From Octopus vulgaris (Eukaryota): DNA of 64,000 nucleotides. Location of the stretch: assembly GCA_951406725.2 (NCBI GenBank), contig OX597825.1, forward strand, positions 26,784,001 through 26,848,000, written 5' to 3'. Below are positions 3,701 through 16,975 of the stretch, piece by piece (the stretch's first letter is position 1; each line of letters opens with the position of its first letter). Both the position numbers and the translations under genes were made by a program. The notes beneath the pieces were generated by a model. The model saw only the letters and a program-made list of their open reading frames with translations. It was not told where the DNA came from and searched no databases.

Positions 3701-5259
3701 ATTTACCCAGTAAATAAATGTCATATGTTGCAATGAATAAGAGTTTTTCAGAGAACAGAACGTTTCTTTGTTATGCAATCAAAATTAAAACATCATTCTT
3801 GGGTTTCATTTTTGAAAAGTAGCTCAGGATACGAAGTTTGGAGATATTTTATTAACATACATTTTCTCTCTGTTCATAGTGTGTTACAAACTAAAGTGCG
3901 ATTTTAACTCAAAACTTATCTTAATTCAAAGTAAAATTCTCTCCTACATTATGCCATGTGTTTATCTACAGGATATTGTCTATCGATGAGAATCTAAATG
4001 GATGTTGTTGACCAAGGATCACGTAATAGTTATGATACACTAAATATATTATCCTTTTTCCAAATATCGTTTCATGTTGTCGTTAAGATTTATGAAACCA
4101 AAAACATGTGTTCCAAATTTGGGAAAGACTATACATTTAAACAGGCAGAATCACTGAAATTTCATTATTCTTTACACAGACTTCGAATAAGTGAGAAGCA
4201 AATGGTGGAATCCATGCAAGATTTGAAATTAGAACGTAATAAAACATATATCTTAGCATTAATAATAATCCTCCTCTCCGATTCATTAAGTAACTATGTA
4301 TTCTATGTTTTGAAATATGGCACAGTTATATTGACTTTAAATGTTGGCAAAAGGTCAGCAAGATGGGGAAAGACAGAAAGTCGATAAAATCGAGCTCAGA
4401 GAGTAACTATGACTGGTTTCTGGAATGAAACACCCATATACCAAATGTTTGACCTATGAAAGAAAGAATAAGATTCACTGATTGCGAGGCTTGCTAAAGA
4501 AAGGTGTATATACATCTATAGGAATGAATACACATCCAAAAGAATTACATGCCCGTTTCTTAAGAAGAGAGGCTGCAGATAAGACAATGGAGCACTACAT
4601 AGACTATCTGTGGGAAATTTATTAAATTACCGGAGTAGAAATAATTTTATTACCGATCCGCACTAAATGGATAACACAAAAACAAGGCGTATAATTCGCG
4701 GTTTATATCTGCCTTCAATGTTTTAAATGAGGTAATTTTTTAAAGGATACATTTCAATAATTCAATAAATTTCTTCCGAAAATGGACCGATCTAGTCTTC
4801 TTACACATATAATAAAAGATTCTAAATGCAACTTCTGATCATAGCGTTTCATAGTAGATTACTAAGGTACATTTCAACCAGGTATAGTATAAGAGTATTT
4901 TTGCTTCGGCTATGGCTAGGTAAGAATATTTACATTACACGCCAGATCTTACTCAAATACATACACTTACGTGTCCATACTGTCAAACAATCAAAAAAAT
5001 ACTGTGCAGGATATTTTTATTGAACATCAAAGCAGTATTATTAAGAACGACAACAAAAAAGTGAATGGCAAAATAGACAAAAGAATGAACGAAAATTCAG
5101 TAAAAAAAAATTCAATTGGAAAATAAATGGTTTCTAACAAGCATCTGAAAGAGAAAGCTTCAAAAAATATATATAGTTTTATCATAGAGATTGAAGAAAT
5201 GAGAATTGCATTGCAGATGAAAGTGTCTTAAATGAAACCATTAAAATATCGTGTCCGAA

Positions 5260-12240: not shown

Positions 12241-13294
12241 AGTGCGTGTTTAATAATGTAGTGAGGATTTATTTCATTCATCATTAATCCTTCCAGTTTA
12301 CATTGGAATAATACTTTTCTGAAATCCATTAGTTCGTGAATTTTTAAAGAATTTCTGATTTTCCTAACCAGAATAAAATGTTTGGAATAATGGTTTGTTT
12401 TTCACGTGTTGTGCTGCATACCATAAATGCTGTAGGATTACTCATCGGATTGAGTAAGTATAATTAAAAATTTACAAATCAGAGCTGTATTAGCCCTTTA
12501 TATTTGTTTTCTATGTTATATACCGTTGTGTTGAATTCAGATTCGTATTTTGTTATCATTAAATCATTCCGCTTTTAATATCCTTTTAACGGAATCTTAT
12601 ACATAAAATTGTAAAACTGTCAGAAAAGGCATTTAACTTTATTTCGAGTTTTTGTATTCATTTATTTATTATACTTACTTGCGATGGAGTATATGGAAAT
12701 ATTTTCTCAATGAAATGGCGTTCAAGTGACAGAAATTCATGCAAATTGGATAATCATCCTGTCCACAGGAGAAGCCTCCATATCCGTCCTTTGCCCCGTG
12801 TTCAAATTTGTATGTCACAACGGAGAAACATTTTCGCAAATTTCATATCCAATTCAAAAAATATCACAGTACTCGTTCATCAATTTATCAATAGAATTCG
12901 TTGAAAAATGTATCAACAAGAAAATGACGCAGTAGCGGGCATTATCTCTGCAATAGACGCAACAGGCGTAAGAGGGGAAAGGATAGTCACTGATCTCAGA
13001 AAATTCAGAAAAGTTTTAAGGTTAAACTAAAGGATAAACGAGAGGTACTTCTCCTAATTAATCACCCAGTCCCTAGTAACTCGGCCCATTCTCTTATGAG
13101 ACGTATAACATTTAGACTACAAACTGATACAACATCGACCAGAACCGCAATCCCAAATTCGCCACGCCTGCTCAGGTGCTGATTCGAATTTTACAAAACA
13201 CAGTTTTAACACGCAATGTAGTGAGTAAATTAGTTATCACTTCTACATAAAAATTATTTCTAATTCTTTTATTAAAATATCAGAATGAATTAAA

Positions 13295-13364
<70 letters not shown>

Positions 13365-13475
13365 GCAATAAAGATTCAAGTCAATTTTAATGAATTTACT
13401 TGAATATGGTACCTAACTTAGATGCACCAAAAAACTATACGGTTTTAACAATACAGTAATGTGGGGTGATTATAA

Positions 13476-13658
13476 GCGAGAAAGAAGCAACAAGAATGGA
13501 TAAGTTTTTAGTACAATCGTTTCATACAAAGACAGGCTTTATTAAAAGTTGCAAAAATTGCAGCATATAAACGTGTCCCGTACTCATCAGCTAAAATACA
13601 TGTGAGTTCTCTAGACATCTTAGTGGTTGAGGCTATACTCATGAAGTAATGTAGATAA
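13476..13658 (-). repeat. 3' pseudo-LTR (sense copy) of the PLE
   Basis: Reverse complement of 15870-16052; no mismatch found by eye. Confidence 0.95.
13506..13596 (-). ncRNA. Type-I hammerhead ribozyme (sense to the PLE)
   Basis: Minus strand reads TTTTAG-CTGATGA-[long stem II]-GAAA-C-GATT-GTA-CTAAAA: 6-bp stem I, intact core, minimal stem III, GUA cleavage triplet. Confidence 0.82.
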
Positions 13659-13746
13659 TTAAGTAACATAAACAGATTTCCAAAGTTCATTAAAGTTCTT
13701 TAAAGATGATGTACAGTCTTATCACAGATTTTTAAAAAAGTTTTAA

Positions 13747-14037
13747 TAGCATCACAGAGAAGGTGACTTAATCCATAGTGTACATATGAATTTCCAGAGA
13801 TATGAGGAGGGATTACATACTCACAGACGACAAATTTATCCATGGCTAATCACAACGAGGTGGGTATCAATTCCTGCTTATTAGCATTACAGAGAGGGTG
13901 AATTAATCCTTTGTATAGATGCACAATTTCCAATGGTGTAGATGTAAATTTCCAGAGAAATGAAGAGGAATTTCATATTCACAGACGATAAATTTATCAA
14001 TGGTTGAACACAATGAGGTAGGTATCAATTCTTGCTA
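13747..14037. repeat. Two diverged tandem copies (~135 and ~155 bp) inside the PLE 3' region
   Basis: tagcatcacagagaaggtga...gggtatcaattcctgct (13747-13880) vs tagcattacagagagggtga...aggtatcaattcttgct (13882-14037). Confidence 0.85.
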
Positions 14038-14129
14038 TATGATTAGGTATTTGCCACATTAATCACATTACTGCTATTTTCAAGAGACTGTAGCTATTTA
14101 ACTTTTAAAGGCTGAAGGGCTTTCTAGAG

Positions 14130-14330
14130 AGGCAAAGAACAGAAAGGGAAGGAAAGTGAGGAAAAGAGAGAAAATAAAGGAGAAGGGAGCAAAAGGGGGG
14201 GAGACTAAAAGAGAAGAGAAAAAGAAAAAGAAAAAAAGAAAAAAAAGAATAAGAAGAAGAAAAAGAAAAAAGAGAAAAGAGAAAGAAAGGAAAGAGGGGA
14301 AGAAGGGAGAAAAGAAAAAGAAAAAGAGGG
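14130..14330. repeat. Polypurine (A/G) low-complexity tract (polypyrimidine in PLE sense)
   Basis: Directly visible. Confidence 0.9.
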
Positions 14331-15067
14331 TTCTAGTTATACAGAAGAATTAGTAGACGGCAAGTCTGGTTTTAATTTGCAGGCATCTAGGAACTAGAGG
14401 AGAATATTATTCCTTGACCAGTAAAACAGCTAATTTATTGCTAACGTGACGCCGTTGAAAGCAGCTATGAATTTAAAGAGAATCTAAAGAGATAACAAGG
14501 TCAGGGGTATAGGGGTCAAAGGCTAAAATCAAAAGAAAATACATTAGGAAAATCTAAGTATAATCTTATCAAAAAGTCATTAAAATTTATTTATTTAATT
14601 TAATCGTTTTACTGTCTTAAGGAGTTGCCGTTATTATTCATACATTGACGGACTACAGGTCAAATCTTAGAAGATCATTTACAAGGTGTTAGGGAATTGT
14701 CTATTATAATGAAGATATTCATACTATCATCGAGGGAGTAGCCTTATTTATTTAATTTTGAAATAGAATTATGAGGCTTTAGTAACTTATTTTATTTTAT
14801 TAAATTTATGTTACTTAAATTAGATTAAGTTAAGAATTAAAAATTAAAGATTAAAATTAAGATTTAAAATTATGAATTTGAAATTAAATAAAGCTTCAAT
14901 TAAGCAGCGTATAAGTACTATTTATTTCCCTGTTCTCAAAAAACTGATGCAGATATAAGGAAAAAGATAACTGTAGTGTGAGAACTCTTAGTTATCTACT
15001 TAAAGCAGTGCTATACTAGTAAAAATCAAGTTATATCTATCTATCTATCTAGTTACGAATATTCTAA

Positions 15068-15736
15068 TCATTTAAAATATTTTAAAGTCTTCAATTTAGC
15101 GTGGACACAAACTTGACCTAGTTCGATATGGTTATTCAATAAGTTTCTATGTTTTCTATGCTTTAGAATTTCATACGTCTCCATGGAGCATAGTTGGCAA
15201 CCAACCCTGCTATTTTTATACGGAATTGCTCTCCTAACTATTTCCCAATTAAGGTTATAATTATTGTTATTATATTTGAGTTCCCAGATTTTGCTTGAAA
15301 GTGTGGTGGTACCATCTTTATGACGTAATTTAAAAGACGAGATGTGGTTTCTAACTCTGGCTAGAAAATTAATTGTACATCCAATGTAAAAATATTTGTT
15401 ATTCTCCGTGGATATGGTACATTTATAGATTACGTTATTTTCCCCGCATAGACCAGGTGCCGGGCATTTTGATTTTATTCTACACTTACACACAGGAGGA
15501 ACAACTTCAGGTTTTGGATTATTCTTGGGTATATGTCTTAGGTTTCTATTATTTTGATTATCATGAGTATAATTGTCCTTATTGTTATTAATATTTTTAT
15601 AGTTGGTGCTGATATCTAAAGTATTGCTATTATTTATTGATCCTTCTGTTTCATCTTTTAGGTCTAAAGTCCTACCATGATTTTTTATATTATTGGTAAT
15701 GTTACTATTATTGCTAGTCTTTTTATCCGACTGCAT
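15068..15736 (-). CDS. PLE GIY-YIG endonuclease domain with Asn-rich linker (C-terminal part of a truncated PLE ORF)
   Basis: CxCx5Cx5C (CKCRIKSKCPAPGLC), VIY...YIG, R..H (RVRNH), LS.KIWELK, W.I, CxxC+E (CQLCSME), LLN, CxH. The frame stays open upstream of Met15736 to ~15883, so that ATG is probably internal. Confidence 0.88.
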   Translation of the reverse strand: MQSDKKTSNNSNITNNIKNHGRTLDLKDETEGSINNSNTLDISTNYKNINNNKDNYTHDNQNNRNLRHIPKNNPKPEVVPPVCKCRIKSKCPAPGLCGENNVIYKCTISTENNKYFYIGCTINFLARVRNHISSFKLRHKDGTTTLSSKIWELKYNNNNYNLNWEIVRRAIPYKNSRVGCQLCSMETYEILKHRKHRNLLNNHIELGQVCVHAKLKTLKYFK

Positions 15737-15869
15737 ATTGTTGTTATAGATATCACTTATATTTTCATTCTCCGTATTTTCTCCATTAGCCTTATTTCTA
15801 TTATTTCTATTATTAACATTATTACTTCTATTAATATCGGTATTGTTATTATTACTATTAATGTTAATG

Positions 15870-16052
15870 TTATCTACATTACTTCATGAGTATAGCCTCA
15901 ACCACTAAGATGTCTAGAGAACTCACATGTATTTTAGCTGATGAGTACGGGACACGTTTATATGCTGCAATTTTTGCAACTTTTAATAAAGCCTGTCTTT
16001 GTATGAAACGATTGTACTAAAAACTTATCCATTCTTGTTGCTTCTTTCTCGC
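15870..16052 (+). repeat. Inverted 5' pseudo-LTR copy
   Basis: Reverse complement of 13476-13658; joins directly onto the truncated ORF. Confidence 0.95.
15932..16022 (+). ncRNA. Type-I hammerhead ribozyme (inverted copy)
   Basis: TTTTAG 15932-37, CTGATGA 15938-44, GAAA 16005-08, GTA 16014-16, CTAAAA 16017-22. Confidence 0.82.
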
Positions 16053-16103
<51 letters not shown>

Positions 16104-16221: not shown

Positions 16222-16975
16222 ACGGGTGCAGGATCTAACCAATGGTTCAAACAACATGAAATACGTGAGAAACAATGAGATAAATACTTAAACAACGAGA
16301 AAGATGGAAAACAGGACAAGGAAACATACAGAAGGAAGTGTTCGTCAGTTGTCGGCTGTGTTTCTACTCCTCATTTCGAGCATTCACCCACAATACGAGT
16401 CCTTAAAGATAGGTGATGGCTTTTTGAAAAGGGAAAATATAGAAGTGAGAGAGAGAAGAAAAACGTCCGATCATTTGAACATCCGTGCAGGAAAAGAAAG
16501 TTGGTCAGGTGAGAAAAAGCTAGATGGACGATGTTCACGTATGAGTAACGAGAGAGAGAGAAATAGAAAGAGGGAAGAGAGAGACAGATAGAGAACGCGT
16601 GAAGTAGGGAGGTGAGAGAAAGGGAATTAGAGAAGTATGGAGGAAGAAAACAGTATAGAGAAGAGAGTTGCATCAAAAAGGTACTCCCACGGGACCATCT
16701 TTCTTTTCCTGCACGGACGTTCAAAAGAACGGGCGTGTTTTTTTCTCTCTCTTCTATATTTTCTCTTTTCCCCCAAACTATTCACTATTTTTCTTCTCGT
16801 TCTGGTGTAACGACCCTCCATAAATGTTTTTGTTCGGTTTCCTTGTAAATCTCCACTGGCATGTTTTTCTTCCCAACTTTGCCCCTCCATAATTCATAAA
16901 TTTTATTTTAGAATTGATGGGAACGACTGTCTATGAAGACTAATATTGTTATAGAAAGCTCGAAATGAGGGTGAA
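16222..16975. mobile_element. Older repeat remnant, probably a PLE 3' end, with internal inverted duplication
   Basis: 16426-16513 and 16686-16771 are diverged inverted copies; 16255-16385 (minus) resembles 52780-52920 (plus); abuts (TA)n. Confidence 0.5.

Follow-up and report, generated by a model that had tools for sequence, protein, structure and literature searches.

The stretch of DNA analysed here (the window) covers 64,000 nt of the Octopus vulgaris genome, contig OX597825.1, and between two TA microsatellites it contains a 5'-truncated, two-armed insertion of a young Penelope-like element (PLE) family that, on its motifs, falls in the Hydra clade. The parts of the insertion are as follows.

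13294..13360, no strand: left (TA)n target microsatellite, 33.5 copies, 96% match
13361..13475, minus strand: 115-nt tail, whose outer edge at 13361 is the long (L) end of the family
13476, minus strand: short (S) site, read through in the left arm
13476..13658, minus strand: 3' pseudo-LTR (pLTR) segment common with the inverted arm, 183/183 identical to 15870-16052
13508..13594, minus strand: type I hammerhead motif, sense to the ORF, predicted cut after 13512
13659..15067, minus strand: long non-coding 3' region, collinear in sister copies
15068..15869, minus strand: 5'-truncated ORF, residues 691-957 of the 957-aa family protein, with an Asn-rich linker, a CxCx5Cx5C motif and a GIY-YIG endonuclease with CxxC and CxH
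15866..15873, no strand: inversion junction between the arms, with 4-nt microhomology
15870..16052, plus strand: inverted 183-nt arm, ending at S, 36 nt past the predicted ribozyme cut
15934..16020, plus strand: the hammerhead motif again, with its cut predicted after 16016
16053, plus strand: additional G separating the S end from the TA run (the element has T here); likely untemplated
16054..16101, no strand: right (TA)n target microsatellite, 24 copies, 100% match

The initial annotation of this sequence had described two 183-bp inverted repeats without mismatch, flanked by (TA)n on both sides, and the repeats are indeed exact and the TA runs present. Its account of the repeat ends stood as to identity and overlooked the 115-nt tail of the left arm, which is absent from the right arm. 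The L arm of this copy is 2,509 nt long and reaches into the endonuclease region, and the S arm is 183 nt long; at the junction the last 4 nt are common to the upstream family sequence and the inverted arm, and the BLAST segments overlap there. The minus-strand frame 15068-15883 is open over 271 codons (267 element-derived, the first 4 from the inverted arm) and reads CKC-x5-C-x5-C ... VIY ... YIG ... CQLC ... CVH, bearing out the uninterrupted Cys-rich GIY-YIG frame noted earlier. The absence of a reverse transcriptase (RT) from this copy was also correctly recognized. From the stop codon the non-coding sequence spans 1.41 kb to the shared repeat, in agreement with the earlier figure of about 1.4 kb, and 1.71 kb to the element end. 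This 3' region contains a 104-nt direct repeat (13775-13878 and 13933-14036, 84%, 158 nt apart) and, on the plus strand at about 14207-14327, a purine-rich tract; both are retained in sister copies. In the right flank, 16292-16591 and 16603-16848 are alike and have related translations, which suggests a local duplication or another repeat.

A search of the 2.8-Gb genome with the 183-nt repeat listed 49 matches, of which 27 are full-length and perfect; the two arms of the window insertion are included in the 27. Among the sampled sister copies, the closest is ~1% divergent from the window copy. The family unit is 4,638 nt. RT-linked full copies, proposed earlier as something to look for in the source genome, are present: the one at L066 encodes RT and endonuclease in a single ORF of 957 aa, and 259/267 residues of the window ORF are identical to it. 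In full copies the upstream repeat passes through the L point into the 5' UTR; the assembly contains 15 such pLTR-to-5'UTR junctions at 14 loci, and an ORF of 949-957 aa is intact in 6 of the 15 copies with this junction. All other copies compared (29/29) continue upstream in family sequence. The window copy is 5'-truncated, and without an RT it would be a dead passenger. In three sequencing runs that we guessed to be RNA, and do not count as evidence of expression, contigs cover 29-30 of 30 bins across the pLTR and ORF of a full copy and miss the unique flank that a DNA run covers. The window insertion is real, young and otherwise ordinary; the family is new and the element type is known. Directly upstream of a near full-length family copy, the long frames at L069:788-3820 have features of another Penelope-type RT/GIY-YIG element, to which they may belong.

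The initial annotation had also raised a dedicated endonuclease-only non-autonomous element, or a stand-alone endonuclease made from an internal ATG (15736). A frame open for 267 codons with an ATG upstream of the Cys motif speaks for such a product, but an open frame is expected anyway in a copy ~1% from its relatives. The 15870 junction is found in 0/29 sister copies, which refutes an endonuclease-only element as a family, and truncation points are scattered over the whole unit. The ATG corresponds to residue 736 and falls within a non-conserved, low-confidence Asn-rich insert that is absent from homologues. We therefore consider either version very improbable.

The family protein has 42 homologues, 41 of them at 32-44% identity. 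The single high-identity homologue that carries a name is the Octopus sinensis gene model P0018 (70% over 41% of the RT region), annotated as an ankyrin-repeat protein, which likely reflects a merged annotation or an insertion within a gene. At 957 aa the family protein is longer than most homologues (~700 aa) owing to two Asn-rich inserts, residues 487-570 and 664-813, that are modelled with low confidence. Long in-frame Asn-rich segments between domains also occur in the Penelope ORFs of Adineta vaga (PMC3846280). Those of the octopus family are compatible with mobility, since its sampled copies share them and its young insertions number in the hundreds. A Pfam search of the full protein found no RT domain, Pfam and PDB sequence searches with it returned nothing useful, and a profile search gave a single weak hit to a retron RT (E 0.017). 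The full ORF has YRDD at residue 355, and the top 6 Foldseek hits of the full-protein model are telomerase RTs (best E 1.2e-8).

For the endonuclease, the earlier GIY-YIG assignment held at the level of fold and fell short at the level of the Pfam match, which is weak and below the cut-off (E 0.0083). Its model (pLDDT 88) is nearest to the GIY-YIG domains of I-TevI, T4 EndoII and UvrC, with Z 10.3 and rmsd 2.4 over 90 aligned residues for I-TevI, and the Y, Y, G, R, H, E and N of the VIY/YIG domain are invariant in 38 sequences. Foldseek gave a best E of 0.07 for the endonuclease and a PHROGs search weak hits only; ESM Atlas neighbours (0.95-0.96) are mostly unnamed, and the one named GIY-YIG serves as a lead only.

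The Hydra clade is defined by RWK, DKT, a CxCx5C linker, CxxC and CxH, loss of CCHH and (TA)n insertion (PMC8557442). The full ORF has RWK at residue 37, DKT (a changed DKG) at 124, CQLC at 915 and CVH at 945, the last two flanking conserved E and N, and C818, C820, C826 and C832 of the CxCx5C linker are invariant in 39 sequences, so that every motif of the Hydra-like C-terminal endonuclease suggested from the window copy was found. In other clades the internal CCHH motif lies between VIY and YIG; the family protein has no conserved Cys pair between VIY and YIG, and the internal CCHH is absent, as in Hydra. In a by-eye comparison the RT-core motifs fit the Hydra rows and not the Neptune rows of the PMC8557442 supplement. 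On these motifs and the by-eye match of the RT core, we assign the family to the Hydra clade of C-terminal EN+ PLEs, with which it also has in common (TA)n insertion and a hammerhead near the 3' end. The family unit is 4.6 kb whereas Hydra elements are usually <3 kb, a tendency that is not diagnostic (PMC8557442), and its 1.7-kb 3' region and 115-nt tail are atypical of the clade. The octopus element Hydra-1_Obim (Craig et al. 2021) was rejected as the identity of the family, being 2,507 bp long with a different hammerhead.

The hammerhead core CTGATGA...GAAAC occurs at 15938 on the plus strand and 13590 on the minus strand. The motif has a long stem II, its core halves being 60 nt apart (much more than in the Hydra hammerheads listed in PMC8557442), and a 2-bp stem III with a self-complementary loop. 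Stems I, II and III can all be drawn, and the centroid fold gives stems I and II. Rfam did not detect a hammerhead at the gathering score or at E<=5, probably because 60 nt part the core halves, and the motif does not stand out in folding energy (z 0.31). Of the complete hammerhead earlier assigned to each arm, the core and three drawable stems thus stand, without the Rfam match or any distinction in folding energy. Breakpoints show no clear peak at the predicted cut, with 8 in its 20-nt bin and 1-11 in bins nearby. A second family, ~73% alike, retains the core; between the two families compared, stem I has two double-sided changes, three G-U pairs become canonical and one pair in stem II is broken.

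This second family was seen at L001:644-830 and L002:650-836, 600 nt from a copy of the main family; it shares the long-stem-II hammerhead, and its S-like end is at equal distance. L001 and L002 are separated by 174 kb on C28 and resemble a segmental duplication. Other hammerhead-like motifs recur in the fetched flanks, among them a short-stem family with core CTGACGA and further families with stem II regions of 31 and 42 nt (loci L110, L136, L163, L196 and L216; L125 and L158; L187).

Family copies end beside TA runs at one of two points, S or L, that lie 115 nt apart. Genome-wide we found 205 exact matches to the S junction and 494 to the L junction, read-through junctions included in the latter, as compared to 0 for either control; the end patterns are exact matches, so variant subfamilies are missed. 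We fetched 119 stretches, comprising the first 60 listed S ends, 58 L ends listed away from another listed end, and one apparent L/L site. The opposite end was found in 46 S-seeded and 38 L-seeded insertions; 27 stretches are one-armed (at least one of these conceals a 10-nt L arm), 6 have an eroded or disrupted far end, and the one that the script left unparsed was resolved by hand as S+L, as was the apparent L/L site. All resolved two-armed insertions (86/86) pair S with L, and none is S/S or L/L. Under free choice of site, the chance of such pairing is ~1e-7 for the S-seeded set alone.

The apparent L/L pair on C2 is in fact a double full-length S+L insertion. In this single insertion of ~9.7 kb (L230 / L229, G000:C2:37617240-37627970), a pair of full-length copies lie head to head; each has an upstream pLTR of its own, and the insertion has one S end and one L end; its S-ended copy carries an intact 954-aa ORF.

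The window has 86 runs of (TA)6 or longer, and ~7% of flank positions fall in or beside a TA run, so a single insertion cannot prove a TA bias. Among the two-armed insertions scored, with the TA-selected seed ends not counted, the far end lies in TA in 84/84 against this background of ~7%, and the TA targeting proposed from the window copy is upheld. At the position next to the S end where the element has T, we found G in 54/81 insertions, T in 13, another base in 2, and 12 unparsed. The partner arm has T at the same position in 48/48 readable cases, so the extra G was likely added at insertion. Inheritance of the G from S-ended masters was rejected, since neither subfamily and no arm-length class lacks it and the partner arm has T. 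On the 3' side of each of the two sites, at 8-20 nt, there is a similar motif and a hairpin (top 16 of 4,978 positions), a post hoc finding with modest support in which the matching bases are on opposite hairpin arms.

Publications already describe this type of element, with its inverted pLTR, one-sided tail, hammerhead and TA preference. Described PLEs have the same partial tandem, adjacent inverted 5'-truncated copy and tail at one end (PMC8557442, PMC3846280), with a tail of 30-40 nt as compared to 115 nt here. In the available text of these two papers the one-sided tail is said to occur "often" or "optionally", without counts, whereas in this family the pairing is 86/86 and breakpoints coincide. 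The literature covered, with subscription papers and bioRxiv supplements outside its scope, yielded no counts for S/L pairing or coincident breakpoints. PLEs are the retroelements closest to telomerase; PMC8557442 states that the origin of their inverted repeats and tail is open, and in vitro work has partly addressed it (PMC11167929).

Arm lengths were compared in 81 two-segment insertions, with breakpoints and overlaps taken from BLAST ends that may be several bases off. The S arm extends further 5' in 28 and the L arm in 26, and in the remaining 27 both arms stop within 15 nt of each other, as compared to a mean of 3.1 and a maximum of 10 in 10,000 permutations that retain shared breakpoint hot spots. 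The arm junctions overlap in 46 cases, are blunt in 2 and have inserted bases in 33, several of which are short local duplications.

Arm divergence averages 0.34% within and 2.3% between insertions, and is lower within in 62/62 insertions with at least 100 shared sites. Because arms of one insertion are closer to each other than to those of other insertions, arm identity used as a family clock overstates youth; the recent insertion proposed earlier is itself supported. Private divergence per arm is ~0.15% (53 differences over two arms, 18,130 sites). With a rough calibration from another octopus species, 0.09 for 25 My (PMC13282606), the mean insertion age is about 0.4 My. Over the same 18,130 sites, 27 variants are private to one insertion yet present in both of its arms, and these show no excess of A-to-G changes that would indicate template editing (2/27).

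We favor, at a probability of roughly 0.6, a mechanism in which one RNA is reverse-transcribed from two fixed sites, with both nicked strands of the TA repeat acting as primers. The endonuclease would nick both strands of (TA)n, one target 3' end would be extended from S and the other from L on the same RNA, and the trailing enzyme would displace the first cDNA; both cDNAs would stop early and their ends would be joined by microhomology or templated end-joining. Each arm begins at a target 3' end and continues as antisense element sequence, the arrangement that target-primed reverse transcription predicts, and most arms cross the hammerhead site, suggesting that the template is uncut there or re-ligated. 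A single RNA primed at S and L is preferred on account of the strict pairing, the identity of the arms and the coincident breakpoints.

A precedent exists in PAc, the Poseidon element of Anolis carolinensis, whose purified protein cuts and extends both strands on uncut RNA, beginning at two internal RT start sites, one at either boundary of the tail, at an AT-rich target and with no need for hammerhead cutting (PMC11167929). PAc belongs to a different clade, and its start sites lie within the ORF start whereas those of the octopus family lie 5' of the ATG. The available text of PMC11167929 reports no difference between strands in start site; the octopus family uses one site per strand. For this family the one-RNA mechanism is inferred from sequence patterns together with the PAc precedent.

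Several of these patterns would also arise in other ways. An L-primed cDNA could snap back, copy itself to S and join the other target end, much as self-priming has been proposed for Penelope palindromes (PMC3846280). S+L pairing and arm identity follow directly from such copying, and the centred junctions (27/81, several on short palindromes), which count against priming at two sites on one RNA to the extent that they are also a fold-back product, are expected from it. The 27 private variants common to both arms likewise weigh against the one-RNA mechanism, being as common as the per-arm differences (53 over two arms); they fit fold-back copying, later gene conversion or unsampled templates no less than one RNA. 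An S arm made by snap-back alone cannot outreach its L arm, yet 28/81 do, by up to 4 kb, and only later off-centre deletions would let either arm be the longer. Up to 13/60 S-seeded insertions have no mapped L arm, and the similar 3' motif at both sites, together with ends that at both sites are mostly G then TA, looks like the outcome of one reaction. For these reasons we judge fold-back unlikely.

Near-identical arms would also be given by two RNAs from one master locus, which is a further point against requiring a single template. A dimeric RT-endonuclease particle would contain two RNAs transcribed from one master, possibly base-paired at the self-complementary stem III of the hammerhead, and asymmetry of the complex would direct one subunit to S and its partner to L. 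Self-complementarity of the stem III loop extends over 8 bp, in the related family this loop is a perfect palindrome, PAc is a predicted dimer (PMC11167929), and hammerheads of this kind are thought to work as dimers (PMC4209133). Arms that stop together in 27/81 insertions, where 3 are expected, are hard to explain with two templates unless strong pause sites are shared, and we give this arrangement even less credence than fold-back. Because its young copies run to hundreds, with at least 6 intact ORFs, and its start sites, 115 nt apart, are easily scored, the family is a good substrate for choosing among two-ended priming of one RNA, two RNAs and fold-back.

A more far-reaching proposal, that PLEs integrate by obligate two-site, two-strand priming on one circular RNA, we put forward as tentative and on balance rather doubtful. 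A circular RNA template has been proposed before (PMC4209133). RNA of unit length would be excised by the pLTR hammerheads and closed by ligation into a circle with both start signals; one target strand would start at S and its opposite at L, and copying from each would roll back across the ligated hammerhead. If true, this scheme would explain why there is a tail, why one arm is inverted and why upstream pLTRs can be of any length. In the assembly, 0/15 pLTR-to-5'UTR junctions are situated downstream of an ORF, though L arms frequently extend into the ORF or past it, and the upstream pLTR starts are scattered over 1.3 kb. These junction positions and this scatter are consistent with a circular template, and linear read-through RNA from L-ended masters, combined with template jumping, could serve in its place.

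Recurrent breakpoints were observed at short palindromic sites of the unit, at about 4224-4229 and 4388-4394 (L062 coordinates). Three full-length copies begin their upstream pLTR at 4228-4229, and these sites are likely hot spots of RT pausing or joining.
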